IMG/VR virus record: IMGVR_UViG_3300017782_000009 | From: an uncultured virus (IMG/VR IMGVR_UViG_3300017782_000009) | Lineage: Duplodnaviria; Heunggongvirae; Uroviricota; Caudoviricetes | Strand: one strand, 5' to 3' | DNA length: 20,000 nt | Shown: piece by piece, positions 3,806-17,458 of the stretch | Position numbering within the stretch: the first letter of the stretch is position 1 | Layout of the letters: the number at the start of each line of letters is the position of its first letter | The notes under the pieces: model-generated | What the model saw: only the letters and a program-made list of their open reading frames with translations | The model's database searches: none | What the model was told of the DNA's origin: nothing | Translations under genes and position numbers: made by a program

Positions 3806-4681
3806 ATGATTTTTTGTCTCTACACTGATTATGGCGCACTAAATAGCAAGCCAATTTTTGAAGCATTTGCCAAAAGTGTGACCGACGCTGGCCATACAGT
3901 CATATATAATGAGCCCTATAGAGTTATGTCGCATTATGAAAACTATGACGTTGCCGTTATATGGAGTGTTCTATGGAACGGACGAATGGCACAAAACAAG
4001 ACGGTATGGGAACAGAATCGTTTATTAGATAGACCGGTTATCGTATTAGAAGTAGGCGGCATAAAAAGAGGCACAACATGGAAGGTTGGATTAAATGGCA
4101 TTAACAAAGATGCTTATTTTGGCAACGCTACTCGAGGTAGTAATCGTGCTGAACGCTTTGGCTTAGAACTTAAACCTTGGCGAACTGAAGGCGAATATAT
4201 TCTTATTTGTGGGCAACACGACAAGAGTCTGCAATGGGCAGGCATGCCTCCAATGAGCCAATGGGTTCAAAAGACTATTACAGAAATACAACAATATACA
4301 AATCGTCCTATAATATTTAGGCCTCATCCTAGATGTCCATTGCCCCATATAGAACACGAATTTAAAAACGTATTAAGGCAAGACCCACGTAAACTTACAG
4401 GCACATATGACGACTTTGATATGAAGTTTGACAACATATGGGCTACAGTAAGTTGGTCTAGTAATCCAGGCATACACAGTATTATAAACGGTGTACCTGC
4501 ATTTGTAGGACCATCAAGTTTAGCATGGAATGTTGCTAATGCACCATTAGAAGATATTGAAAATCCACACATGGGTGCAAGACAAGAATGGCTTGAAGAG
4601 TATGCACACACTGAACATACTATAGATGAAATAGCACAAGGTATTCCGTTAAATCACTTATTAAACCAATTATCTTCTTGA
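3806..4681 (+). CDS. KpsC/KpsS-like putative glycosyltransferase (GT-B)
   Basis: YILICGQHDKS, IIFRPHP and TVSWSSNPGIHSIINGVPAF. Paralog of 2000-2929. Confidence 0.6.
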   Translation: MIFCLYTDYGALNSKPIFEAFAKSVTDAGHTVIYNEPYRVMSHYENYDVAVIWSVLWNGRMAQNKTVWEQNRLLDRPVIVLEVGGIKRGTTWKVGLNGINKDAYFGNATRGSNRAERFGLELKPWRTEGEYILICGQHDKSLQWAGMPPMSQWVQKTITEIQQYTNRPIIFRPHPRCPLPHIEHEFKNVLRQDPRKLTGTYDDFDMKFDNIWATVSWSSNPGIHSIINGVPAFVGPSSLAWNVANAPLEDIENPHMGARQEWLEEYAHTEHTIDEIAQGIPLNHLLNQLSS

Positions 4682-4706
4682 CTTTACAAGCATTTTGTTA
4701 TAAAAT
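4678..4706 (+). promoter_or_regulatory. Sigma70-type promoter
   Basis: TTGACT (4678-4683), 17-bp spacer, TAAAAT (4701-4706). AGGAG SD at 4721-4725. Confidence 0.7.
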
Positions 4707-4729
4707 ATATGTATTAGTTGAGGAGAACT

Positions 4730-5941
4730 ATGCCCATGAAAACTTGCGAAGATTGCTTAGAGTTATTAATAGGACTACATACAGGTCCTAAGTTCGATGT
4801 TGAATCGCCAGATGTTAATTTTCTAGGTAGTATTGCTAGACAAACTTTTAGAGGTATTGGTTTTACAGATCGTCAATATGAAGCCGTTAAAGAAAAATTA
4901 ACAGGAACATATCGATCACAATTTGTAGAACATAATATAGATCTTAATGAGTGTATTAAAACATTAAGGGTTCCGTTAAGAAAGTTAGATCGAGCAAAAT
5001 GGATCAAAGTAATTGACAACGGGCAGGATGAACCTTATATTGGTGTACGATTTGTTTTTAGTAAAAAATTAATTGCTAAAAAAGAAAATCTAAAAAACAA
5101 AGTTGTGCATCTTGGATACGATAAAATTGAAAAGGTACATTCGTTCCAACTAACTGAATCTGCTATCTATCAAATAATAGAAGAATTTAAAAATTCGCAC
5201 TTTGATATTGAAGAGCAATTACTTAACCAACATAGGAAAATAACAGAAATAATGCAAAACAAGAATGACTATATTCCTGGTATATATAATTTTAATCTTA
5301 AGAACTTACATCAGAACGGTGTTAACTACGTTGTGTCAGCGTTAGGAGAACCAACGCCTAATAACTTATATAAGTTTTATGATAGAAGAGAATTACTAGG
5401 CCTATCTCACTTTGATCAAAATGACTTAGAACAAACTTTAAAATCTTTACTGCCATTAACTAAACGATTAATTCAACGAGAACAAACACACGTCTTAGTT
5501 AAGCCATCTGAATTTACTATTCATAATTTAGTAGAAACTATACTAGAATTATTTCGCTTTCCATTAGTAATTGTTCTAAATGAAAAGTATGCAAGAGACG
5601 AGCTTTACGAATTTAATAGAGCATTTAACGGAATCATACCAAGTGATAATATGTCTGTTATGTTTAGATTAGAAAATAAAGAACCTGATGCAGTAGAGTT
5701 TAATCGCTATATCAAAGAGAATAATTTAAACAATCCGGTTGACAAAAATACCAAAATAGTGTATATTAGTAATAATAAAGTTCCAAAACCGTTATTGACA
5801 TCTGACTGGGTGCCGATCACAGGCATTACAACTGAATCAAGGCAACCACCTAAGATAGAAACTTATTTAGGTGCTCTTGATTTAGTAATGCATTACGACA
5901 ACGATGTAGTTTGGAGAGGAAGTACAGTAGAAAAAATATGA
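4730..5941 (+). CDS. Hypothetical protein (about 400 aa) coupled to the uvsW-like gene
   Basis: Long ORF with promoter and SD; start is ATG 4730 or 4736. Its stop overlaps the helicase ATG (ATGA). No recognised catalytic motif. Confidence 0.8.
   Translation: MPMKTCEDCLELLIGLHTGPKFDVESPDVNFLGSIARQTFRGIGFTDRQYEAVKEKLTGTYRSQFVEHNIDLNECIKTLRVPLRKLDRAKWIKVIDNGQDEPYIGVRFVFSKKLIAKKENLKNKVVHLGYDKIEKVHSFQLTESAIYQIIEEFKNSHFDIEEQLLNQHRKITEIMQNKNDYIPGIYNFNLKNLHQNGVNYVVSALGEPTPNNLYKFYDRRELLGLSHFDQNDLEQTLKSLLPLTKRLIQREQTHVLVKPSEFTIHNLVETILELFRFPLVIVLNEKYARDELYEFNRAFNGIIPSDNMSVMFRLENKEPDAVEFNRYIKENNLNNPVDKNTKIVYISNNKVPKPLLTSDWVPITGITTESRQPPKIETYLGALDLVMHYDNDVVWRGSTVEKI
5739..5767 (+). promoter_or_regulatory. 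Sigma70-type promoter embedded in a coding region, upstream of uvsW
   Basis: TTGACA (5739-5744), 17-bp spacer, TATATT (5762-5767). Confidence 0.6.
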
Positions 5942-7398
5942 GTTGTAGATTAATAATACAAGACGAAGTAAACATTAAACTAGAAGGTTTAGATGTAGAT
6001 GTACGCCGTAAATTATCAAATGCATTGAAGTTTGAAGTACCATATGCAAGGTATATGCCGCAATATAAACTAGGTCGTTGGGACGGCAAGGTTGCATTTT
6101 TTGGTATAGGTGGTACAGGTTATGTTAATCATTTAGACACAGTAGTTTCAATATTACAAAAAGAAAATGTTGAAATAGTAGACATTGTAGATCAAAGACA
6201 TCCTATTCAATTAAACTTCACCCCAGTAACAAAAGATTACTGGAAGGATCAAGGCATCCAATGGCCCGAAGGTCACCCTGCAGAAGGTGAAGACATTATT
6301 CTACGTGATTACCAAGTTGAAGCCATCAACAACTTCCTTGATAATCCGCAGAGCTTGCAACAGATTGCAACTGGTGCAGGTAAAACTATTACCACAGCAA
6401 CATTAAGTCATATCAGTGAGCCTTACGGACGTAGTCTTGTAATTGTGCCAAATAAATCTCTTGTTGAACAAACGGAAGAGGATTATATAAACTGTGGACT
6501 CGACGTCGGTGTATACTTTGGTGATAGGAAACAACTTGGCAAGACTCATACTATTTGTACTTGGCAGAGCTTAAACATCTTAGATAAGAAAACTAAAGAT
6601 GGTTCTGCTGTGCTGAGTCTTGCTGAATTTTTAGAAGGTGTAAGCACAATTATTATTGACGAAGTACACCAAGCAAAAGCAGAAGTATTAAAAAAATTAC
6701 TTACACAAAACTTACGTAATGCTCCAATACGTTGGGGACTTACTGGAACTATTCCAAAAGAAAAGTTTGAGTTTGAAAGTATACATGCAAGTATTGGACC
6801 AGTTATTGGACATATTACTGCAAAAGAATTACAAGACAAAGGCGTACTTGCTGAATGTCATGTTAATGTAGTACAGTTAATCGATGTTGTTGAACACAGA
6901 GATTATCAATCAGAATTAAAATATCTAGTAACAGATAGTAATAGATTAGAATATATAGGCAAATTATTAAACACAGTTTCTCAGTCAGGCAATACTTTAA
7001 TATTAGTAGATAGAATTAGTGCAGGACAACAGTTAGCAGAGCTTATTCCTGGTAGCACATTTGTTAGTGGCACAGTTAAGGTTAAAGACAGAAAAGAAAC
7101 ATACGACGAGATTAAGGAAGGTACTAACAAAGTTATTATTGCTACATATGGTGTAGCGGCTGTTGGTCTTAACATTCCTAGAATTTTCAATCTTGTACTT
7201 ATTGAACCCGGCAAAAGTTTTGTTAGGGTTATACAAAGTATAGGTAGAGGCGTAAGAAAGGCAAAGGACAAGGACTTCGTACAAATATGGGATTTAACAT
7301 CTACATGTAAGTATGCGAAGAGACATTTAACACAACGAAAAAAATTCTATAAGGAAGCACAATATCCTTTCACTATAGAAAAAGTAGAATGGAACTAA
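5938..7398 (+). CDS. uvsW: SF2 DNA helicase, T4 UvsW-like
   Basis: LRDYQ Q-motif, Walker A ATGAGKT, DEVH, GLTGT, motif V VGLNIP and motif VI QSIGRGVR. ATG at 5938. Confidence 0.9.
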   Translation: MSCRLIIQDEVNIKLEGLDVDVRRKLSNALKFEVPYARYMPQYKLGRWDGKVAFFGIGGTGYVNHLDTVVSILQKENVEIVDIVDQRHPIQLNFTPVTKDYWKDQGIQWPEGHPAEGEDIILRDYQVEAINNFLDNPQSLQQIATGAGKTITTATLSHISEPYGRSLVIVPNKSLVEQTEEDYINCGLDVGVYFGDRKQLGKTHTICTWQSLNILDKKTKDGSAVLSLAEFLEGVSTIIIDEVHQAKAEVLKKLLTQNLRNAPIRWGLTGTIPKEKFEFESIHASIGPVIGHITAKELQDKGVLAECHVNVVQLIDVVEHRDYQSELKYLVTDSNRLEYIGKLLNTVSQSGNTLILVDRISAGQQLAELIPGSTFVSGTVKVKDRKETYDEIKEGTNKVIIATYGVAAVGLNIPRIFNLVLIEPGKSFVRVIQSIGRGVRKAKDKDFVQIWDLTSTCKYAKRHLTQRKKFYKEAQYPFTIEKVEWN

Positions 7399-7401
7399 CA
7401 T

Positions 7402-7908
7402 ATGAGAATATTAACGCTAGAAAATAAATCGTTTGAACTAAACGATATGCCAGAACAGATTGAAGATGAAATACGATTTGCTGTATTAGATAACAGTGAC
7501 CCAAAAGAAACAGATTTCTTTTTTGTACCAATGATCTTTTTAGAATCATTTAGTGCGCCAGCAATGGTAATGGAAATTAATGGAAAAGAAATAATGATGC
7601 CAGTTGATTGGAGCATTGCAGTAGGTGATAGTGAAAGTGGATCTGACTTAGAAGTACTACCACTAACAAGTATTAATGATAGAGGATTTGAAGCATTCCT
7701 CTTTAATCCGTTAACAAGTTTTAAAGTTGACTTTGGCACTGTAAAGATTACTAACTTTTACTCAGATGTAAAATGGTATTTTCCAAAAGTAAAGAACGGA
7801 CAGTTACTTTCAATACCTATTACAGAAGGCGACAATCCTTTGTGTGCATTTTTTATTAAAGAGATAAGCAGACAAAGTGAAGTTATAGACTTTGGTCAGT
7901 TATTATAA
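7402..7908 (+). CDS. Hypothetical beta-rich protein, possibly a degenerate Hint (intein-like) fold
   Basis: 168-aa ORF. The strand pattern resembles Hint blocks but the catalytic residues are missing (see findings). The ORF itself is well supported; the fold call is tentative. Confidence 0.6.
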   Translation: MRILTLENKSFELNDMPEQIEDEIRFAVLDNSDPKETDFFFVPMIFLESFSAPAMVMEINGKEIMMPVDWSIAVGDSESGSDLEVLPLTSINDRGFEAFLFNPLTSFKVDFGTVKITNFYSDVKWYFPKVKNGQLLSIPITEGDNPLCAFFIKEISRQSEVIDFGQLL

Positions 7909-7918
7909 GGAGAAACAC

Positions 7919-8275
7919 ATGACTTTAAAAGCAGGAAAAATATGGGGTCAAACAGAACTGATTCACGCAAACGGTGTACTAGAGTTTCATCGTATTGAAT
8001 ATAAAGGCGGATTTAAATGTTCAGAACACGAACACAAATTTAAATGGAACGGCTTCTTTGTTGAGTCAGGCAAGATGTTAGTACGTGTTTGGCAAGACGA
8101 TCAAGAAGGATTAGTTGACGAAACTATTTTAAATCCAGGAGACTTTATGCAAGTAAAGCCAGGCAAAGTACATCAGTTTGAAGGAATAGAAGATGGTGTA
8201 GCATTTGAACTATACTGGGCAGAGTTTAATCACGATGATATTGTTAGACGTACAGTAGGAAGTCCAGTTAAGTAA
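7919..8275 (+). CDS. Cupin-domain protein (sugar isomerase-like)
   Basis: AAGGAG SD, then ATG 7919. KIWG, CSEHEHKFKWNGFFVESG and VKPGKVHQF cupin motifs. Confidence 0.8.
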   Translation: MTLKAGKIWGQTELIHANGVLEFHRIEYKGGFKCSEHEHKFKWNGFFVESGKMLVRVWQDDQEGLVDETILNPGDFMQVKPGKVHQFEGIEDGVAFELYWAEFNHDDIVRRTVGSPVK

Positions 8276-8802
8276 TGTACAGTAAAAAGTACATAGAAGA
8301 GCTTCGTATAATACATGCTGACAAAACACGACTCAAAGGGTTTGGCGGCAAGATGAAAGACTTAGGTGAATTTCATACTTACATGGACAAATGGAATCCT
8401 TCTAGTGTACTCGACTATGGCTGTGGTAAAGGTACTATACTTGGTAAATTAAAAGAACAGTATCCAGACACAGGCTTTGCAGGATATGATCCTGCTGTAG
8501 TTTATTATGCAAATGGTGCAACTGAAGTAGACTGTGTATTCAGCAACGATGTATTAGAACACATTGAGCCTGAATTTATTGGGCAAGTATTACATCATAT
8601 AGATACACTTGCTAACAAGTACATATGGTTGCGTATAGATACCCTACCAGCTCGTAAAAGATTATCAGACGGTCGCAACGCTCATTTAATAATTGAAGAC
8701 CAAGACTGGTGGACTGAAATGATACAGCACAGCATAGACGGAATTGTGGTTTATAATAATGTTAATAAAAAAGGTAAACTAGATGTCGCAATCGAAAAAT
8801 AA
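8275..8802 (+). CDS. Class I SAM-dependent methyltransferase
   Basis: VLDYGCGKG motif I, GYDP and DVLEHIEP. TAATG coupling to the cupin gene. Confidence 0.85.
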   Translation: MYSKKYIEELRIIHADKTRLKGFGGKMKDLGEFHTYMDKWNPSSVLDYGCGKGTILGKLKEQYPDTGFAGYDPAVVYYANGATEVDCVFSNDVLEHIEPEFIGQVLHHIDTLANKYIWLRIDTLPARKRLSDGRNAHLIIEDQDWWTEMIQHSIDGIVVYNNVNKKGKLDVAIEK

Positions 8803-9064
8803 AATGGTGCCAGGTGCCGCACTAATATACGAACGCACCGACGGAGTTGTATATGCAAGATATAGAGACGCACCTCATAATAAATTACCACGTTGGATTA
8901 TAGGTGGTGACCCAGCAGGGGTTGCTAGAGCACAAGGCGATTTATTAAGTTATGCTGAATGGCAAGAATTGTGCGAACTATCAGAAGTTTATCCAACTTT
9001 AAAAAAGTTATTAGATCAACTAGTAACAACATACTATACTGTTAAAGAAACTCGACATAACTGA
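8783..9064 (+). CDS. Hypothetical protein
   Basis: 93-aa ORF filling the operon gap, AAGG upstream. Confidence 0.7.
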   Translation: MSQSKNKMVPGAALIYERTDGVVYARYRDAPHNKLPRWIIGGDPAGVARAQGDLLSYAEWQELCELSEVYPTLKKLLDQLVTTYYTVKETRHN

Positions 9065-9077
9065 GTAAGGGGTTAAT

Positions 9078-10172
9078 ATGAACAATTATATTTTTACAAG
9101 CGAAAGCGTAAGCAACGGACACCCAGATAAGGTAGCTGATCAAATTAGTGATGCACTTGTTGACGCTGGTCTAAAAGCAGGTGACGAAACTACTCGTGTT
9201 GCTGTAGAAACACTAGTAACTACTAACATGGTAACGTTAGCCGGAGAAGTAAAGAACTTTAATGTAAGCAAAGACGAAGTAAAAGAAATTGTCCGAAACA
9301 AAGTTAAAGAAATTGGTTACGAACAAGATGGCTTTCATTGGGAGAACTTAAAAATTTATAATGAAATACATAATCAAAGTTCGGACATTGCATTAGGTAC
9401 AGACGACTTTGGCGCAGGCGACCAAGGACTTATGTTTGGATATGCTTGCAACGATAATGAAGCATACATGCCTGCTCCAATATATTATGCACACAATATT
9501 TTAGAATCATTAAATACTGTTAGAAAAACTGTAGACTTTTTAGGACCAGATGCAAAGTCACAAGTAAGTATAGAGTATCAAGGACACAAACCAAAACGTG
9601 TTGATCAAATTGTTATCAGCACACAACACGCCGAAGGCAAAAACGAGATAGCTTCGGCACTAGCACAACAGTCAGCAGTTGCTGTATTAGGAGACTTAAT
9701 CGATGAAAAAACTACATGGCATCTTAACCCTACTGGAAATTTCGTTATTGGGGGTCCTGACGGTGATGCTGGTGTTACTGGGCGAAAAATTATTGTTGAT
9801 ACTTATGGGGGTTTTGCTCCTCATGGTGGCGGTGCGTTTAGTGGCAAAGACCCAACAAAAGTCGACAGAAGTGCAGCCTACATGGCCAGATGGCTCGCCA
9901 AAAATGTAGTAGCAGATGACATGGCAGATTGGTGTCAGATACAACTATCATATGCAATTGGTGTTAAAGAACCTACTAGCATCTATATTGATAGCAACGG
10001 ACATAATCGAAGTATTGAAAAGTTTATTCGTAACGAAATTGATCTAACACCTAAAGGAATAATTGATAGATTTGATCTGTTTAACTTCCATGAGTATAGT
10101 GCTAATTGCGTATACGGACATTTTGGAAATAAAGATGTTCCTTGGGAACAAATAGGATGGGAGAAATCATGA
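9078..10172 (+). CDS. metK: S-adenosylmethionine synthetase
   Basis: FTSESVSNGHPDKVADQISD, GAGDQGLMFGYA, PDAKSQV and GGPDGDAGVTGRKIIVDTYGG..HGGGAFSGKDPTKVDRSAAY. Confidence 0.98.
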   Translation: MNNYIFTSESVSNGHPDKVADQISDALVDAGLKAGDETTRVAVETLVTTNMVTLAGEVKNFNVSKDEVKEIVRNKVKEIGYEQDGFHWENLKIYNEIHNQSSDIALGTDDFGAGDQGLMFGYACNDNEAYMPAPIYYAHNILESLNTVRKTVDFLGPDAKSQVSIEYQGHKPKRVDQIVISTQHAEGKNEIASALAQQSAVAVLGDLIDEKTTWHLNPTGNFVIGGPDGDAGVTGRKIIVDTYGGFAPHGGGAFSGKDPTKVDRSAAYMARWLAKNVVADDMADWCQIQLSYAIGVKEPTSIYIDSNGHNRSIEKFIRNEIDLTPKGIIDRFDLFNFHEYSANCVYGHFGNKDVPWEQIGWEKS

Positions 10173-10327
10173 GTGACGAACAATGGGTAGATGACAGTTT
10201 AATGTTAACTAAGTTACACGACTTAGCAAGAGAACAAAATAATAAAGAGCTACGAGAAATAGCCGATAGGTTTAGTGATCTAATAAACCGAGCTCAGGGT
10301 CGTAGACATTGGACTGGCAATGAATAA
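10169..10327 (+). CDS. Small hypothetical helical protein (52 aa)
   Basis: ATGA overlap with metK, GGAG upstream. Confidence 0.65.
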   Translation: MSDEQWVDDSLMLTKLHDLAREQNNKELREIADRFSDLINRAQGRRHWTGNE

Positions 10328-10451
10328 ATGTAGTACATGTGGTGAAAGGGTATTTGAAATAAAGTATCATACCCCAGATCATCAACATGTATTTTGTGAT
10401 GCATATTGCTCACATGAATATTATAAACAAAGGAGAGACGATGAGACATAG
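10320..10451 (+). CDS. 43-aa treble-clef/TRASH(YHS)-like metal-binding protein (not in ORF track)
   Basis: Read manually: MNKCSTCGERVFEIKYHTPDHQHVFCDAYCSHEYYKQRRDDET, with CxxC-x18-CxxxC (FCxxxC). It overlaps both neighbours. Confidence 0.7.
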   Translation: MNKCSTCGERVFEIKYHTPDHQHVFCDAYCSHEYYKQRRDDET

Positions 10452-10665
10452 GATAGCAGGAGTAATTTTCCTAGCATTAGGAACATACTTCTTTATGCAG
10501 GATATGTTACCAGACTCAATGGGTGCAGGAGCCGCAATGACAACGCATCACGGAGTTCATAGCAATACATTACTAGGCTTAGGAGAAATGACATGGATGT
10601 GGTTTACAATGGCACTTGTACATTTCTTTATACGTGATTGTAATTGCAAGGAGTGTAACAAGTGA
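10441..10665 (+). CDS. Small membrane protein (74 aa), Met/His-rich with C-terminal CxCxxC
   Basis: AGGAG SD at 10431, then ATG 10441. Two hydrophobic segments flank an MTTHHGVH loop. Confidence 0.7.
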   Translation: MRHRIAGVIFLALGTYFFMQDMLPDSMGAGAAMTTHHGVHSNTLLGLGEMTWMWFTMALVHFFIRDCNCKECNK

Positions 10666-11435
10666 GAATTATAGCAGGACCATGTCAGCACGAGTCACTA
10701 GAGCAAAGTTTAAGAATTGCTGTAGAATGTAAACGTGTATGCGATAAACTTGGTATTGAATATTATTTCAAAGCAAGTTATGACAAAGCAAATCGCACAA
10801 GTGCATCTGGTATACGTGGCCAAGGTTTGGCTGCCACAATGGAAGACTTTAGATTTTTAAAACAAGAGTTGAATGTCAAGACACTAACTGATGTACACAA
10901 TCAAAATGAAATATTAAAAATTGGCGCATATTATGATGACGCTGTTGATGTTATACAGATACCTGCATTCCTTTGCAGACAAACAGACTTAATAAAAGCT
11001 GCATGTAAAACAGGTAAAATAGTAAATATAAAAAAAGGTCAGTTCTTAGCACCTTGGGATATGAAAGGTGTACTAAGTAAAACTAAAGGTGCAAAAGAAG
11101 TTTGGATAACTGAACGAGGAACTAGTTTTGGATATAATACTCTTGTCGTGGATTTCACTGGTCTACAGTATATGCTTGATAATTATGATGTGCCTATCGT
11201 GTTGGATGGCACTCACGCAGTACAGAAGCCGGGAGGACAGGGTGACTCTAGTGGCGGTAATCGTGATTATGTCCCTGGGCTCGTTCGTGCTGGGTCTGCT
11301 CTTGGGATCGACTCCTTCTTTATGGAAGTCCATGCTGACCCTGATGTAGCACCTAGTGACGGACCTAATATGTTACGACTAGAAGACTTTGAAGGAGTGG
11401 TACGTGACATCGTCAGCTATTCTTATACCAGCTAG
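10662..11435 (+). CDS. kdsA: KDO-8-phosphate synthase (metal-dependent class, Cys in AGPC)
   Basis: IIAGPC, FKASYDKANRTS, QIPAFLCRQTDL, NIKKGQFLAP, ERGTSFGY, DGTHAVQ and MEVH..PD.APSDG. Confidence 0.97.
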   Translation: MRIIAGPCQHESLEQSLRIAVECKRVCDKLGIEYYFKASYDKANRTSASGIRGQGLAATMEDFRFLKQELNVKTLTDVHNQNEILKIGAYYDDAVDVIQIPAFLCRQTDLIKAACKTGKIVNIKKGQFLAPWDMKGVLSKTKGAKEVWITERGTSFGYNTLVVDFTGLQYMLDNYDVPIVLDGTHAVQKPGGQGDSSGGNRDYVPGLVRAGSALGIDSFFMEVHADPDVAPSDGPNMLRLEDFEGVVRDIVSYSYTS

Positions 11436-12093
11436 ATATAACAGCACACGTTACCCTGGAAAGCCATTGTGTATGTTAGATGGTGTTCCCATGATAAAAC
11501 GTGTGTATGACGCTTGTATTGCGTCTAAGATACCAACATACGTGCTTACTGATGATATGCGTATTGCAGAAGTAATCCCTACTAGACATTCGTGGGTTGA
11601 CGAAGTAGATGAATATGCTAACGGTACAGAACGATGTGCAGGTGCTGTAAAACATTGTCCGTTGTTATCAGAGTACACTGAGTTTATTAATGTACAAGGT
11701 GACATGCCTGATGTTGACGTTGCTATGATACAACAAGTAAGTTGGCATCTAAAACATCACTCTGTAACAACAGCGTTTACAGAGATGCCTAAAGAAAAAC
11801 AAGATGACCCTAATACAGTTAAGATGGTACGTTCAGGAGATCGAGCTCTGTGGTTTGGCAGAGGCATGACTGGCTATGGCGATTGGCACTTAGGCATATA
11901 CGGATATAGAAGAGATGCATTAGAAAAATATTCAACACTTGAAGTAACACAAGAAGAAAATATTGAGCAACTAGAACAGTTGCGGTGGCTCAAAAACGGT
12001 TGGCAAATAGGTTGTTTGAGTGTACAATATAATGGAGTAGAAATAAACGCACCTGAGGATGTAGACTTATGGCACAAGATAAATTCCCAATAA
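11404..12093 (+). CDS. kdsB: CMP-Kdo synthetase (3-deoxy-manno-octulosonate cytidylyltransferase)
   Basis: IPARYNSTRYPGKPL, NGTERC, INVQGD.P, HLGIYGYR and EQLEQLRWL. GTG 11404 follows AGGAG. Confidence 0.95.
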   Translation: MTSSAILIPARYNSTRYPGKPLCMLDGVPMIKRVYDACIASKIPTYVLTDDMRIAEVIPTRHSWVDEVDEYANGTERCAGAVKHCPLLSEYTEFINVQGDMPDVDVAMIQQVSWHLKHHSVTTAFTEMPKEKQDDPNTVKMVRSGDRALWFGRGMTGYGDWHLGIYGYRRDALEKYSTLEVTQEENIEQLEQLRWLKNGWQIGCLSVQYNGVEINAPEDVDLWHKINSQ

Positions 12094-12536
12094 AAGATGT
12101 ATTAGCATCTATTGATCTAAACGGCAAAGGCGTTTGGAAAGAACTATCTCCCGAACAACAAAAGTCTGTAAGTTTTTGGTTGTTAAACAGATACGTTAGT
12201 GCTGTTAGAGGAAGCCGTGATAAACAAGAGATGGCTATATTCAAAGTTAACGAACACTACAACAAACATTTTAATACAATAGGTGTTGGTAAAGAAAAAG
12301 GACATCCACTACTAATGTGGCAACTATTGTGTACTAGTGGTAACTGGGGCGACATACAATTTCACCCATACATTGGTTTCAAGAAGAAAGGTGGCAATAA
12401 CAATCATGCAATCAAACTACTTGAACAAGTGTACCCTAACATGAAGACAGACGAGGTTGAATTACTTGCTAGAATATCTACAACAAAAGAACTTAAACAA
12501 CTCGCGGAAGAACATGACATTGCAACAAAACTCTAA
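12069..12536 (+). CDS. Clamp-loader small subunit, T4 gp62-like
   Basis: Pattern (DVLASID...FWLLNRYVS...VNE..N...LMWQLL...PYI..KK...IKLLEQVY...EVELL) parallels T4-type gp62. Size and replication context fit. Confidence 0.65.
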   Translation: MAQDKFPIKDVLASIDLNGKGVWKELSPEQQKSVSFWLLNRYVSAVRGSRDKQEMAIFKVNEHYNKHFNTIGVGKEKGHPLLMWQLLCTSGNWGDIQFHPYIGFKKKGGNNNHAIKLLEQVYPNMKTDEVELLARISTTKELKQLAEEHDIATKL

Positions 12537-13215
12537 ACCTAAACCGTTTGTATGTGAGTACTGTGGCACAGGATATTCCCGTGAAAAAACATTACTGGTC
12601 CATATGTGTGAGCAGAAACGCAGACACTTACAACAAAAAGAAAAACTTGTACAGTTAGGGTTTTATGCATTCAATCAGTTTTATAAATTAAGTGCAGGTG
12701 CAAGAAAAGATAAAACATATAAAGAGTTTTGTAAAAGTTCTTACTACAATGCATTTGTAAAGTTTGGAAGTTTTATTAATAATGTAAAGCCATTGTATCC
12801 TGAAAAGTATATTGACTATGTAGTAACTAGTGGAGTTAAACTTGACCACTGGTGTCGTGAAGACATGTATGAAAAATATGCAATTAACCTAATACGTAAA
12901 GAAGGTGTTGGAACAGCACTAGAACGTAGTGTAATGACTATGATGGAATGGGCTGAAGAAAACAATAGTGTATGGAATCATTATTTTAACTATGTAAGTT
13001 TAAATAGAGCGGTGTGGCACATAAAGGACGGAAAGATAAGTCCTTGGCTAGTGCTAAACTGTAATAGCGGAAAAGAAATGCTAGGTAAGTTTAACGATGA
13101 ACAATTAGGAATGATATATAGTATTACTGATCCCAAACATTGGGCTGTACGGTTTCAAAGACAGCCGTCAGATGTTGCTCTTGTAAAAGAAGTAGCAAAG
13201 GAGAGCAATTTATAA
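12514..13215 (+). CDS. Hypothetical protein with an N-terminal C2H2-like zinc finger
   Basis: KPFVCEYCGTGYSREKTLLVHMC (CxxC-x12-H). Overlaps the gp62-like gene; TAATG-coupled to the mini-DnaE. Confidence 0.8.
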   Translation: MTLQQNSKPKPFVCEYCGTGYSREKTLLVHMCEQKRRHLQQKEKLVQLGFYAFNQFYKLSAGARKDKTYKEFCKSSYYNAFVKFGSFINNVKPLYPEKYIDYVVTSGVKLDHWCREDMYEKYAINLIRKEGVGTALERSVMTMMEWAEENNSVWNHYFNYVSLNRAVWHIKDGKISPWLVLNCNSGKEMLGKFNDEQLGMIYSITDPKHWAVRFQRQPSDVALVKEVAKESNL

Positions 13216-13775
13216 TGCCAGATATTGATATAGATTTTGCTGATAGAAGTATTATATTAGACAAGATACAACACCGTGTAGCAAAACTAGATAGCGGTAA
13301 GAAACATAACACTGGGGTGTATGCTACAGAAATACCACACAATCCTGTAGATAATATATCTACAATCGAACACAAGACAGCAGAAGACAGAGGTTACTTT
13401 AAACTAGATTTTTTAAATGTGTCTATATACAAAGATGTTAAAGACGAGGCACATTTACAAGAACTTATGGAAAGGAAACCAATATGGCAACTACTGGAGC
13501 ACAAAGACTTCGTCGACAAAGTATTTCATCTCTCAGGGCACGACACTCTCTTAAAGCAATTGAAGCCTACTTCGGTACAACAATTGGCGGCTACACTGGC
13601 AATCATACGCCCAGCCAAGAGACACTTAGCAGACAAGAGCTGGGAAGAAATAGAAAAAGAAGTTTGGCTGAAACCAACAAACAATGAATATTATTTCAAG
13701 AAGGCTCACGCCTTTGCTTATGCAATGAGCGTAGTAGTGCATATGAATTTAATATGTGAGGAATTTAATCCTTAG
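13215..13775 (+). CDS. Miniature DnaE (family C DNA polymerase) catalytic-core protein, 186 aa
   Basis: MPDIDIDF, KHNTGVY, GYFKLDFL, VFHLSG, LKPTSVQQLAATLAIIRP and YYFKKAHAFAYA are collinear with DnaE motifs. GGAG SD and TAATG start. Confidence 0.85.
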   Translation: MPDIDIDFADRSIILDKIQHRVAKLDSGKKHNTGVYATEIPHNPVDNISTIEHKTAEDRGYFKLDFLNVSIYKDVKDEAHLQELMERKPIWQLLEHKDFVDKVFHLSGHDTLLKQLKPTSVQQLAATLAIIRPAKRHLADKSWEEIEKEVWLKPTNNEYYFKKAHAFAYAMSVVVHMNLICEEFNP

Positions 13776-14136
13776 GCTTTTTAACAAGTTGGACTTGTTT
13801 ACGTTTCACTCTTTTAATACTTAGATTGCCTAAGTTAACTGTTGGCCCTAGTGTAACCTTTACATCTTTACTATTCATTGTAATCATTGAATACCCAAGA
13901 CTTTGAATTTCGTTACGGAGAAAGATACTAATCGGAATCAATCGATTACTTTCCCACCACCATATGTCGCCCAAGTCTAGCAATAACTTTTTGTCTTCTT
14001 CTGTATGAAGTGATGTGTACACGTACATTGTAGTAACGTACTGATCTTGATTTACGATGATGCCGACGTACTCGTTGCCACCGTAATGCACAACACTTAT
14101 AAAGGGAAAATTTTCTTTAATATCTTTTAATAACAT
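13765..14136 (-). CDS. Hypothetical protein (123 aa)
   Basis: Clean ORF with YVGIIVNQD and WWWESNRLIPISIFL. Minus-strand TAAATA at 14179-14184 upstream. Confidence 0.8.
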   Translation of the reverse strand: MLLKDIKENFPFISVVHYGGNEYVGIIVNQDQYVTTMYVYTSLHTEEDKKLLLDLGDIWWWESNRLIPISIFLRNEIQSLGYSMITMNSKDVKVTLGPTVNLGNLSIKRVKRKQVQLVKKPKD

Positions 14137-14151
14137 TAGAACCTTTTTGTA

Positions 14152-14184
14152 ATAAATATACTTATGTTAACGTCAAGGTATTTA
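14152..14184. promoter_or_regulatory. Divergent late-like promoters
   Basis: ATAAATA on + (14152-14158), 5 nt before ATG 14164. TAAATA on - (14179-14184). Confidence 0.55.
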
Positions 14185-14943
14185 GTTCCTAATCAGACTA
14201 CAATTATTGCTAATGAAGCAGGATTCATAACGGAGTATAGACCAGTGTATCAAAGAAATCTAACAGTTTACAAAGGCATAGACAATGTGCTTGAGTTTCG
14301 TCTTAAAAACGGTGATCAAAAACCAATCGATGTCGCAGGCAAAACGCCTAAGTTTGTTGCCTTCGATGAAAATAAAAAACTAATTATTGAACACGATGGT
14401 GTGCTTAATGTCGGAGACGATAGTGCAGCAACTAGAGGATTGTTCAACGTAACTGTAACTGAAAACGATTTACTTAATGTTAAGCAACAATACTTGTCAT
14501 ATAGTCTATACCTAGTTGACGATACTACTGGTGCAAAAACAATTACATACAACGACGAAGCATTTGGTGCAACTGGCACAATCTACGTAAGTGCTACAGC
14601 ATTTCCTGGACCAGCTAACAGTTATTCAATTACAACATTCACACAAGCAGGCACAGTATGGAACAGTGAAACTATTACAGCCGAACCTGCTATTAACGGT
14701 AATGCTGCTTTACACACAGCCGCTATGTACACAGATAGTTACATAGGTGATATTGTAGTACAAGGTACACTAGACAACACTGTAGACGGCACTACACACT
14801 GGGCTGACATTGCTACTCTTACATTTACTGGTAGTGAATCAGAGCCAGTATCAGTTAACTTTAATGGTGTATTCAATCATCTACGCTTTAGTGCTAGTGC
14901 TGATCCTGACACAAAGGTTACTAAAATACTAGTAAGAAACTAG
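14164..14943 (+). CDS. Putative virion structural protein (beta-rich)
   Basis: Thr/Gly/Asn-rich composition, 'VYKGIDNVLEFRLKNGDQKPIDV' baseplate/Ig-like pattern and a late-type promoter. Confidence 0.55.
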   Translation: MLTSRYLVPNQTTIIANEAGFITEYRPVYQRNLTVYKGIDNVLEFRLKNGDQKPIDVAGKTPKFVAFDENKKLIIEHDGVLNVGDDSAATRGLFNVTVTENDLLNVKQQYLSYSLYLVDDTTGAKTITYNDEAFGATGTIYVSATAFPGPANSYSITTFTQAGTVWNSETITAEPAINGNAALHTAAMYTDSYIGDIVVQGTLDNTVDGTTHWADIATLTFTGSESEPVSVNFNGVFNHLRFSASADPDTKVTKILVRN

Positions 14944-14965
14944 ACTTTTCGGTAATCAAAACTCA

Positions 14966-14994
14966 TTGACTTTACTATAGATTTCTGCTATAAT
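14966..14994 (+). promoter_or_regulatory. Strong sigma70 promoter (extended -10) for the primase
   Basis: TTGACT (14966-14971), 17-bp spacer, TATAAT (14989-14994) preceded by TG (14986-14987). Confidence 0.85.
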
Positions 14995-15000
14995 ACTTGT

Positions 15001-15924
15001 ATGAGTATATTAGTTGACACTGTCCTTGCCTATTTGCCTGCTAAGAGGAAACAAACTCCTAGCGGATGGCTGTCCTTTAATGCACCTTGCTGTGTACATA
15101 ACGGTACAAGTGCTGATAAAAGACAACGTGGCGGTGTTATACAAAACGATGGCGGCGTTAGCTATCATTGTTTCAACTGTGGTTTTAAAGCCAGTTGGCA
15201 GCCGGGCAGAAACTTTTCTCATAAGATGCGAAAGCTCTTACAATGGCTAGGAGCACCTGATGATGTAATCAACAAGGTTGGTCTAGATGTTATGAGAGAA
15301 AATGAAGGAGTCGAGGCAAAAACTCGTATAGCCGAACTTCCAACATTTAGTTCTGTTCCGTTGCCCGAATCTGCTCGTAAGTTACAAGACTGGGCAGACT
15401 ACTGTGCAATGGAACCAGGTGGTGTAGACAAAAACTTAATAAAGATTTTTGAATACATGAAAGAGCGTAACTTGTACATTGATGACATGGACTACTATTG
15501 GACACCTGAACTAGGGTATCGTGATAGATTAATTATTCCTTTTTTATATGAAGGTAAGGTAGTAGGTTGGACAGCTCGTAGTATACTGCCAGACAAGAAG
15601 CCTAAGTACTTAACAGAAGTACAACCTGGATTTGTATTTGGTATGGACGAACAACGAATGCAAAAGATCTTTACTATACTATGTGAAGGTCAACTTGATG
15701 CAATACACGTTGAAGGATGTGCATTGGGTGGCAGTGAGATCAGTGATGGTCAAGCATTGTTGTTGAACAGAATAGGCAAAGAAGTTATAGTTGTTCCTGA
15801 CAGAGATAGTGCAGGAAGTAAACTAGTAGAACGTGCTATAGAATTAGGCTGGAGCGTTAGTTTGCCTGATTGGACTAGTGATATAAATGATATAGGTGAT
15901 TGTGTTAATGCACACGGTCGTTGA
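15001..15924 (+). CDS. DNA primase, T4 gp61-like (Zn-binding + TOPRIM); frame continues to 16005 past a TGA
   Basis: FNAPCC...RGG...YHCFNCGF zinc domain, RLIIPF, GWTAR, PKY, CEGQLDA, PDRD and DIGD. Confidence 0.9.
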   Translation: MSILVDTVLAYLPAKRKQTPSGWLSFNAPCCVHNGTSADKRQRGGVIQNDGGVSYHCFNCGFKASWQPGRNFSHKMRKLLQWLGAPDDVINKVGLDVMRENEGVEAKTRIAELPTFSSVPLPESARKLQDWADYCAMEPGGVDKNLIKIFEYMKERNLYIDDMDYYWTPELGYRDRLIIPFLYEGKVVGWTARSILPDKKPKYLTEVQPGFVFGMDEQRMQKIFTILCEGQLDAIHVEGCALGGSEISDGQALLLNRIGKEVIVVPDRDSAGSKLVERAIELGWSVSLPDWTSDINDIGDCVNAHGR

Positions 15925-16033
15925 TACACACTGTACAGTATTGTAAGTAGTGCAGAATCAAGTGCATTAAAGATAAGACTAAAAGCCAAAAAGTGGTTTA
16001 CATGAACAGTAACGTAGGATATATAATATTAAT

Positions 16034-17458
16034 ATGACAAGACAGAATACAGATTATGGATATGATATACAAAAAGTATATCTAGAAATGATGATGACAG
16101 ATGCTGAGACATTTGTTAGATGCCAAACAGTTTTTAATCCAAAGGCATTTGATAGACGCTTAGAGGCACCTGCTAAGTTCTTGAATGATTATGTAACTGA
16201 ACATAATGCTATGCCCACGTTTGATATGATCAATGCGGCAACAGATGCAAATTTAAAACACCCTGGCGATTTACAAGAGAATCATTATGATTGGCTACTG
16301 TTAGAGTTTGAAACGTTTAGTAGACACAAGGCACTTGAAGCGGCAATCTTAAAGGGTGCTGACTTATTAGAGCAGGGTGAGTATGGACCTGTTGAAGACT
16401 TAGTCAAGAAGGCTGTACAGATTGGATTGCAAAAAGACTTGGGTACAAACTATTTTGCTGACCCTAGAGCTAGACTAGAAGGTATTAAGAGTACAAACGG
16501 ACAAGTAAGTACAGGTTGGGCCGCTATTGATAAGAAACTATTCGGTGGGTTCAATAGAGGAGAGCTGAATATCTTTGCAGGTGGTTCGGGTGCAGGTAAG
16601 AGTTTGTTCTTGGCTAACCTAGGAGTTAACTGGGCTCTTGCAGGCATGAACGTATTATACTTGACCCTAGAGCTTAGTGAAGCATTAGTTAGTATGAGGG
16701 TAGACAGTATGGTTACTGGCATACCTAGTAGAGATGTATTCAAGAGCATTGATGATGTTGAGATGAAGGTTAAGATGATTGGCAAGAAGTCAGGAGCCTT
16801 TCAAGTTAAGTATATGCCCTCAGGTAAAACGCCTAATGACGTAAGAAGTTATATCAAAGAGTTTGAAATTAAGACAGGTAAAAAGATTGACGTACTGTTA
16901 ATTGACTACTTGGACTTGCTTATGCCTAATGGTGCAAAGGTAAGTGCAGAGAACTTGTACATCAAAGACAAGTATGTATCGGAAGAGTTGCGTAACCTAG
17001 CAATGGAATTGAACACAGTATTTGTTACAGCGGCACAGTTGAACAGGGGTGCTGTTGAAGAAATTGAATTTGATCACAGTCATATATCAGGTGGACTTAG
17101 TAAGATTCAAACAGCAGATAACGTACTAGGTATCTTTACTAGTAGAGCTATGCGTGAGCGTGGGCGTTATCAATTACAGTTAATGAAAACACGTAACAGT
17201 GGCGGTGTAGGTCAAAAGATTGATCTAGGCTTTGATGTAGACACACTACGTATTATAGATCTTGATGAAGATGATGATGATACAAACAGTTTTGGAACAA
17301 CTAAAACTAGCACAAGCAGTATAGTAGACAATCTAAAACGTTCGAACACACCATCACAAGATCCAAGTGACGGAGCGCCTGTACCCAAGATAAAAGCAGA
17401 AGCTGATAGTACAGCTCTTAGAAGTTTTATTAATAACTTGCCAGGTGATGATATTTAA
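16034..17458 (+). CDS. Replicative DNA helicase, T4 gp41/DnaB-like
   Basis: STGW..ID, AGGSGAGKS Walker A, TLEL, LIDYLDL, TAAQLNR and KTRN. Acidic, low-complexity C-terminal tail. Confidence 0.93.
   Translation: MTRQNTDYGYDIQKVYLEMMMTDAETFVRCQTVFNPKAFDRRLEAPAKFLNDYVTEHNAMPTFDMINAATDANLKHPGDLQENHYDWLLLEFETFSRHKALEAAILKGADLLEQGEYGPVEDLVKKAVQIGLQKDLGTNYFADPRARLEGIKSTNGQVSTGWAAIDKKLFGGFNRGELNIFAGGSGAGKSLFLANLGVNWALAGMNVLYLTLELSEALVSMRVDSMVTGIPSRDVFKSIDDVEMKVKMIGKKSGAFQVKYMPSGKTPNDVRSYIKEFEIKTGKKIDVLLIDYLDLLMPNGAKVSAENLYIKDKYVSEELRNLAMELNTVFVTAAQLNRGAVEEIEFDHSHISGGLSKIQTADNVLGIFTSRAMRERGRYQLQLMKTRNSGGVGQKIDLGFDVDTLRIIDLDEDDDDTNSFGTTKTSTSSIVDNLKRSNTPSQDPSDGAPVPKIKAEADSTALRSFINNLPGDDI

Follow-up and report, generated by a model that had tools for sequence, protein, structure and literature searches.

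In group 2.2 jumbo phages, a phage-specific, split and minimal form of the DNA polymerase III alpha subunit (Pol III alpha) has been described, in which NTP binding is assigned to an N-terminal protein and the binding of Mg2+ and template to a C-terminal one, the two being encoded by distant genes (Iyer, Anantharaman, Krishnan, Burroughs, Aravind 2021, Viruses 13:63; PMC7824862). According to the accessible parts of that paper, the minimal Pol III alpha accompanies a T4-like family B polymerase and possesses no other Pol III domains, Atu_ph07 is named as a member of group 2.2, and the family was predicted from sequence, with the synthesis of one strand, or repair, as its suggested role. Here, we analysed a stretch of 20,000 nucleotides (nt) from an uncultured Caudoviricetes virus (IMG/VR record IMGVR_UViG_3300017782_000009), referred to as the window in the following, which contains at 13215..13775 a gene for a protein of 186 amino acids (aa). 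We propose that this open reading frame (ORF) very probably encodes the C-terminal unit (C-unit) of such a split, DnaE-like enzyme of polymerase family C from a group 2.2 jumbo phage. Judged against the available parts of PMC7824862, the protein is an addition from an uncultured marine lineage to a system already described there, and the feature itself is not new; what our analysis adds to those parts is the exact junction between the units (E. coli 393/400), models of both units, ratios of nonsynonymous to synonymous substitution rates (dN/dS), abundance figures and one natural fusion. An earlier sequence-only reading of the window had headlined the gene as a self-contained 'miniaturised polymerase core' and listed 'one subunit of a split polymerase' among several candidates. 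Its observation was confirmed and its interpretation in part: the split subunit is the reading that we arrive at as well, whereas the self-contained enzyme had to be given up, as the protein lacks the GRGS half of the palm, which is a separate gene in 8/8 relatives.

The gene is open over 186 codons from an ATG at 13215, with a translation starting MPDIDIDF, and this ATG is internal to an open frame, 13140..13775, which has a TTG start. The features of the gene are as follows.

13215..13775, plus strand: probable C-terminal (Mg2+- and template-binding) unit of a split minimal Pol III alpha, 186 aa plus stop, assigned from homology, model and dN/dS
13198..13203, plus strand: Shine-Dalgarno-like AAGGAG, 11 nt 5' of the ATG, read from the sequence
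13213-13217, plus strand: TAATG overlap, in which the ATG of the gene and the stop of the upstream ORF (ending at 13215) have one base in common
13221..13235, plus strand: codons D3-I-D5-I-D7 of the DxD metal-binding strand, D3/D5 falling on E. coli D401/D403 (aligned to 2hnh 400-406)
13401..13409, plus strand: codons K63-L-D65 with the third catalytic aspartate, on E. coli K553/D555 ('KiD' to 'KFD')
13608..13613, plus strand: codons R132-P133 of the finger motif LAxIRP, on the E. coli 'FRP' ending at residue 640
13698..13709, plus strand: codons of the K162-A-H165 region, motif FKKAHA, on E. coli NKSH (K758 and H760 by alignment position)

The start codon, the Shine-Dalgarno-like site and the TAATG coupling are thus present as previously read, and AAGGAG would be expected to act as the ribosome-binding site. 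For the analysis of conservation, we used an alignment of 74 full-length homologues that are 29-55% identical to the 186-aa protein. Residues D3, D5, K63, D65, R132 and P133 are invariant in this alignment, D7, K162 and H165 are conserved in at least 90% of the sequences, and the finger motifs LAxIRP and FKKxHA rank among the best-conserved columns. In E. coli Pol III alpha, D401, D403 and D555 serve as the catalytic residues. All three catalytic aspartates noted in the sequence-only reading are therefore not only present, but without a single loss in the 74 sequences.

The relationship to DnaE is seen in sequence profiles as well as in the fold. Of the PHROG families, phrog_11778, a profile of 197 positions named 'DNA polymerase', covers residues 3-182 with an E value of 2.5e-60, and phrog_405, a Pol III alpha family of 1190 positions, matches the protein with an E value of 1.8e-6. 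When the profile of the 74 homologues was compared with the PDB, 9/9 matches at E <= 1 were Pol III alpha (E 9.5e-6 to 2e-4), and these matches are collinear and fall into three blocks, E. coli 400-418, 539-641 and 739-769. The AlphaFold2 model obtained with the same alignment has a mean predicted local distance difference test score (pLDDT) of 96.4 and a predicted template modelling score (pTM) of 0.88. With this model as query, ranks 1-17 in Foldseek are all C-family polymerases (best E 6.4e-4), and so are ranks 1-14 in VIA-align (Z 6.4-9.9, 170-184 residues aligned). The top VIA-align entry is 3e0d_A (Z 9.9, root-mean-square deviation (rmsd) 3.8, 184 residues aligned, model 1-186 on Taq 461-838); M. 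tuberculosis DnaE (5lew) reaches Z 9.8, E. coli 2hnh Z 9.2 (rmsd 4.4, 182 residues aligned, model 1-186 on E. coli 400-781), and the best unrelated chain only Z 3.2. The six motifs quoted in the sequence-only reading all occur in the translation in the order given there and, on the evidence of profile and model, they are true DnaE motifs; the alignment to E. coli DnaE and the structure prediction which that reading had suggested as checks bear it out.

The comparison with E. coli DnaE also locates the internal deletions between motifs that had been read from the sequence. At the first site, ~121 E. coli residues (418-539) correspond to ~34 in the 186-aa protein, and at the second, ~98 residues (641-739) correspond to ~11, leaving ~87 residues gone at each of the two sites. 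By the domain boundaries of Lamers et al. 2006, the first gap is presumably the thumb and the second part of the fingers. The model ends at the equivalent of E. coli 781, with nothing beyond. Beginning at the DxD strand and spanning the equivalent of E. coli 400-781, the 186-aa polypeptide has no PHP domain, no GRGS segment, no clamp-binding region and no OB fold. The earlier statement that these parts are missing holds for the polypeptide, but not for the system as a whole, as GRGS is encoded by a separate gene in the relatives.

This separate gene was found in eight related genomes, namely PA5oct, Atu_ph07, RaK2, XacN1, Vibrio phage 2.275.O, Stenotrophomonas phage CM1, Sharanji and an uncultured genome of 237 kilobases (kb), G003, whose C-unit is 73% identical to the 186-aa protein. 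A search of the whole genomes with PF07733 gave one further, distant locus in each of them (8/8), ~14-182 kb away from the C-unit gene, and we refer to its product as the N-unit. The matches, at 187801-188028 in PA5oct and 240841-241083 in Atu_ph07, cover model positions 18-98 in these two phages, 20-95 in G003 and 13-96 in RaK2, XacN1, Vibrio phage 2.275.O, CM1 and Sharanji. In G003, the C-unit corresponds to PF07733 positions 96-196 (15.1 bits, below the cut-off), exactly adjoining positions 20-95 of the N-unit. With lengths of 169-185 aa, the eight N-unit ORFs all contain G-x-G-R-G-S and stop 0-3 residues past '...EF[LF][KRE]' (8/8). This terminal motif equals 'ERFL' at E. coli 390-393, just before the PDFDVDF motif, and the end of the N-unit hence coincides with the beginning of the C-unit (junction E. 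coli 393/400). The N-unit scores above the Pfam cut-off (E 1.7e-9), its profile aligns to E. coli 285-392, and 9/10 of its PDB matches are Pol III alpha. The N-unit model has a mean pLDDT of 67 and is confident only at residues 78-150 and 157-185; it superimposes on E. coli 271-393 (4jom, Z 9.8) and on 5lew (Z 10.2), and all ten entries among the matches listed are Pol III alpha. Relatives of the N-unit are as abundant as those of the C-unit, with at least 7993 at E <= 0.001 among 8000 candidates scored in a collection clustered at 90% identity. Within the 20-kb window, neither the ORF list nor a Pfam scan contains an N-unit.

Both units also occur joined in a single polypeptide. Among the best 150 representatives at 50% identity, we identified a natural fusion of 375 aa, P0343, in which residues 15-180 correspond to the G003 N-unit (31% identity, E 9e-23) and residues 189-370 to the 186-aa protein (33% identity, E 2e-34), with a linker of ~10 residues between '...EFIK' and 'DFDID'. 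PF07733 runs continuously over the junction (residues 97-207, model 12-121, E 4.8e-16). No relatives of P0343 were found in viral contigs or metagenome contigs. In a search for longer forms of the C-unit, the sole match was P0391 (425 aa), a singleton on a 1405-nt contig. In this protein, C-unit residues ~44 to 186, without the DxD strand, follow an N-terminal stretch of ~280 aa that is unrelated (precomputed Pfam PF28514), and either the insertion of a mobile element or a chimeric assembly could account for it.

The sequence-only reading had favoured a functional, repurposed enzyme over a decaying fragment, and selection on the gene agrees with this. We compared 79 ORFs from 80 related loci (one ORF was not extracted) and the 186-aa gene, giving 3160 pairs; for the 765 of these with 0.05<dS<1.5, the median dN/dS is 0.134 and the maximum 0.261, which shows strong purifying selection. 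The gene is hence not a pseudogene, and the invariance of the catalytic aspartates is in line with this. Relatives of the C-unit number at least 7995 at E <= 0.001 (of 8000 candidates scored, again at 90% identity), and same-length homologues, which had been named as a further check, are the rule, with 184-191 aa among the matches listed (120 clusters). At the same threshold, 416 proteins were found among representatives at 50% identity, and in IMG/VR, 545 of 600 pattern matches encode relatives. By tblastn, 94 phage records match, all of which bear phage names; among the matches listed (40 phage records), lengths range from 109 to 490 kb and all but one exceed 280 kb. The highest identity of the 186-aa protein to the protein of any isolate is 51%, and a megablast search of 12000-16000 against phage records gave no match. 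Contigs from RNA libraries (3/4 runs, three studies) overlap the gene at 13358-13678, 13430-13531 and 13481-13640, although such libraries can hold DNA and transcription is not thereby shown; 13070-13354, which includes the first 140 bases of the gene, is not covered by these contigs.

The available part of the Sharanji paper reports that this phage has a 'DNA polymerase III DnaE' gene, whereas the Sharanji C-unit is annotated as hypothetical, indicating that routine annotation misses the C-terminal half. The accessible portions of the PA5oct omics paper (PMC7318152) make no mention of gp220, gp288 or DNA polymerase, and those of a 2026 review on jumbo phages (PMC13282480) make none of Pol III or a split polymerase.

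The C-unit gene lies among T4-type replication genes, as had been noted before:

15001-15924: Toprim primase (phrog_47, E 6.4e-39)
16034-17458: DnaB-like helicase (phrog_19, E 1.8e-69)
5911-7398: UvsW-like helicase, further upstream

The RaK2 orthologues of these three proteins are annotated as gp61, gp41 and UvsW. The gene order of a ~233-aa protein, the C-unit, a convergent small ORF, a structural protein, the primase and the helicase is shared by the window and by PA5oct, Atu_ph07, RaK2, Sharanji and the Vibrio phage, and the primase is located no more than 3 kb from the C-unit in 60/80 related loci. This shared gene order would place the source phage in group 2.2, whose family B polymerase was seen in the relatives. 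The sequence-only reading had expected a family B replicase in such a T4-type system and had suggested a search for it, and for a partner with PHP or GRGS, elsewhere in the genome. Carried out in the relatives, this search gave a family B polymerase and a GRGS gene in 8/8 genomes, but PF02811 (PHP) above the cut-off in 0/5. A weak PHP match in G003 (14.7 bits) was discarded as spurious, since it lies inside a cytidylyltransferase (KdsB-like) gene. In PA5oct (MK797984.1, 216595-221821), the family B polymerase is annotated as two coding sequences split by a putative Hef-like homing-endonuclease gene, and Atu_ph07 resembles PA5oct in that the Pfam matches to this polymerase fall into two open frames.

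The GRGS motif of Pol-beta-type nucleotidyltransferases holds the triphosphate of the incoming nucleotide, and the segments equivalent to both units form one palm domain in solved DnaE structures. We propose that the C-unit would provide the three metal-binding aspartates (D3, D5 and D65) on their beta-strands and a shortened finger module for binding of the template and the deoxynucleoside triphosphate (dNTP). On its own it is without the GRGS helix-loop, and this part would be supplied by a second protein of ~170-185 aa encoded tens of kb away. Both polypeptides most likely associate non-covalently and rebuild one palm domain, which would place the GRGS triphosphate-binding loop over the three aspartates. 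We infer that the two units would be in physical contact, catalytically active and able to use dNTPs, the product being a ~370-residue heterodimer that would act as a templated, probably distributive DNA polymerase. The pair should be distributive because thumb, clamp-binding, OB and PHP parts are all lacking, and the presence of a family B replicase suggests that the mini-enzyme is an accessory beside this main T4-type replicase. Possible roles would be gap filling, repair or the short extension of primers from the adjacent gp61/gp41-type primosome. With regard to the last of these, one might speculate that the T4-type primosome includes a heterodimer of N- and C-units as its primer-extension polymerase, which would synthesize short DNA on gp61-made RNA primers and then hand over to the family B replicase and its clamp. 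Such a role would resemble that of eukaryotic Pol alpha, or of Bacillus DnaE beside PolC, and with the halves in two distant transcription units, the activity would be switched on only when both are expressed. We consider this more specific role tentative and rather unlikely; the support for it consists of the conserved place of the C-unit beside primase and helicase, and of the position of the N-unit near clamp-loader-like genes in PA5oct.

Could the 186-aa protein instead work as a stand-alone miniature polymerase or nucleotidyltransferase, without a GRGS-bearing partner? The gene has its own start, Shine-Dalgarno-like site and stop, the protein contains all three aspartates and is modelled with a confident fold by itself (pLDDT 96.4), and there is no N-unit within the 20-kb window. 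However, the polypeptide lacks the triphosphate-binding GS loop that defines Pol-beta-type nucleotidyltransferases, while a complementary gene that ends at the exact missing junction co-occurs in 8/8 genomes, is equally abundant (at least 7993 relatives at E <= 0.001) and is joined collinearly to the C-unit in P0343, which makes a stand-alone enzyme very unlikely. It is even harder to reconcile three catalytic aspartates, K63 and R132 that are invariant at only 29-55% identity, a dN/dS of ~0.13 and a constant length of 184-191 aa among the matches listed (120 clusters) with a catalytically dead remnant retained for a structural role in the replisome, or with a gene being lost. RNA-library contigs from three studies, which cover parts of the gene, also speak against this, with the proviso that the libraries can hold DNA. 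A remnant would fit the extreme reduction compared to the ~1160-aa cellular DnaE and the blindness of Pfam to the protein at E <= 0.01, but we regard it as extremely improbable.

A different view would be that the units do assemble, but into a template-independent or otherwise specialised nucleotidyltransferase, for example one that adds tails or makes a nucleotide product for DNA modification or for conflict with the host. The deletion of the thumb and of much of the finger domain, the lack of clamp-binding, OB and PHP parts, the complete family B replicase that the phage already has (as seen in relatives) and the fact that our literature searches found no bench work would all be compatible with such an enzyme. 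Nevertheless, the finger motifs LAxIRP and FKKxHA are among the best-conserved columns, which fits retained template and dNTP handling, the C-unit gene keeps its place next to those for primase and replicative helicase not only in the window but also in PA5oct, Atu_ph07, RaK2, Sharanji and the Vibrio phage, and the PA5oct N-unit is located three genes upstream of a clamp-loader-like gene (a candidate label, given by eye). A specialised nucleotidyltransferase of this kind therefore appears improbable to us.

The split polymerase, which remains our preferred explanation, has to be weighed against several points that do not favour it. No bench work or activity data on a split mini-DnaE were found in our literature searches. 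The Pfam scan of the 186-aa protein returned 0 families at E <= 0.01; against PF07733, the protein is below the gathering score, and the G003 orthologue has 15.1 bits compared to a cut-off of 23.9. A single-sequence phmmer search of the PDB was not significant, with M. tuberculosis DnaE1 at E 2.1, although this match falls in three collinear pieces. No thumb and no clamp-binding region, by which the enzyme might grip DNA, were found. The N-unit model is poor over residues 1-77, and no fold was assigned there. P0343 is a singleton on a 2415-nt contig, and its C-terminal half is nested among stand-alone C-units in a quick, midpoint-rooted tree without outgroup, with a Shimodaira-Hasegawa-like approximate likelihood ratio test (SH-aLRT) value of only 92. 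Due to this nesting among split forms, P0343 may be a secondary fusion and not the ancestral state, and the tree cannot separate the two. That the source phage itself has an N-unit and a family B polymerase is deduced from its relatives, whose C-units share 37-73% identity with the 186-aa protein. In four related contigs that are long but only 29-73% complete, no N-unit was found; a family B polymerase is absent there too, which fits both genes lying in the missing parts. The N-unit and family B genes are ~28-29 kb apart in G003 and PA5oct. The nearest related record, a 13-kb fragment (G001), gave no polymerase match.

Further genes were noted on either side of the C-unit and next to the N-unit. 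Those in the window are:

12514-13215, plus strand: 233-aa protein (phrog_11058, function unknown)
13765-14136, minus strand: convergent 123-aa ORF (phrog_11637, function unknown, E 2.9e-30)
7892-8275: cupin (Pfam)
8275-8802: methyltransferase (Pfam)
9078-10172: S-adenosylmethionine synthetase (Pfam)
10662-11435: DAHP-synthetase-family protein (Pfam family; KdsA-like is a reading only)
11389-12093: cytidylyltransferase (Pfam family; KdsB-like is a reading only)

The 233-aa protein has an N-terminal C2H2-like CxxC...HxxxC motif (Pfam zf-C2H2 17.8 bits, below the cut-off of 25.2), and an ESM Atlas search with it returned 'hypothetical protein' only. It had been put forward in the sequence-only reading for co-folding with the C-unit. 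Its relatives occur in 78/80 loci, but directly abut the C-unit in only 14 of these and are elsewhere 0.2-2 kb off, and three other genes lie between the two in G003; we do not propose it as the partner for this reason. By eye, the genes inserted in G003 (55000-62000; positions 4636-6212) look like a 150-aa P-loop kinase-like, a 137-aa nucleotidyltransferase-like and a 165-aa peptide-deformylase-like protein, all of which are candidate labels. The 123-aa ORF and the 3' end of the C-unit gene have 11 nt in common, and this ORF is on the opposite strand in 78/80 related loci and in the isolates examined; an Atlas search with it gave no usable match. The run of host-like metabolic genes at 7892-12093 (Pfam) is located just upstream of the replication block. 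In PA5oct (186301-189528) and G003 (181954-185181), the N-unit gene is followed by genes for a small charged protein and then for another small protein (108 and 136 aa), which is annotated as 'chaperonin' in PA5oct. The next gene in PA5oct has a Walker-A motif at its beginning and may encode a clamp-loader subunit, again a candidate label.

The split enzyme described here represents the smallest known catalytic core of a C-family polymerase, its division into two chains is natural, and its family is very abundant. Should the pair prove active, it would define the minimal parts needed by a DnaE-type enzyme, provide a ~370-residue system for studying C-family catalysis and place bacterial-type and archaeo-eukaryotic-type polymerases in one replisome.

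With respect to an accessory role, B. subtilis DnaE offers a comparison: as Sanders et al. 2010 are said to have reported, it is an accessory C-family polymerase that extends primers and then hands over to PolC. The analogy is a functional one, suggested for the C-unit by the position of its gene next to primase and helicase. The B. subtilis enzyme is full length and works beside PolC as main replicase, not beside a family B polymerase. Compared to bacterial DnaE (2hnh and 4jom, E. coli; 2hpi and 3e0d, Taq; 5lew, M. tuberculosis), the split mini-DnaE has the same Pol-beta-type palm with the three aspartates and the equivalent of K553, and the same finger motifs, collinear in sequence and fold. 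In contrast to the bacterial enzymes, it is without PHP, thumb, beta-clamp-binding, OB and tau-binding parts and comprises ~370 residues in two chains, not ~1160 in one. The GS loop, which full-length DnaE carries in the same chain, is not on the C-unit polypeptide, and GRGS is found on a separate protein in the relatives. Furthermore, the mini-enzyme sits beside a family B replicase and is thus probably not the main replicase. The closest match is the split minimal Pol III alpha as presented in the accessible parts of PMC7824862: the same arrangement was recovered here in eight related genomes, and the 186-aa protein, at most 51% identical to the proteins of isolates, extends it to an uncultured marine lineage.

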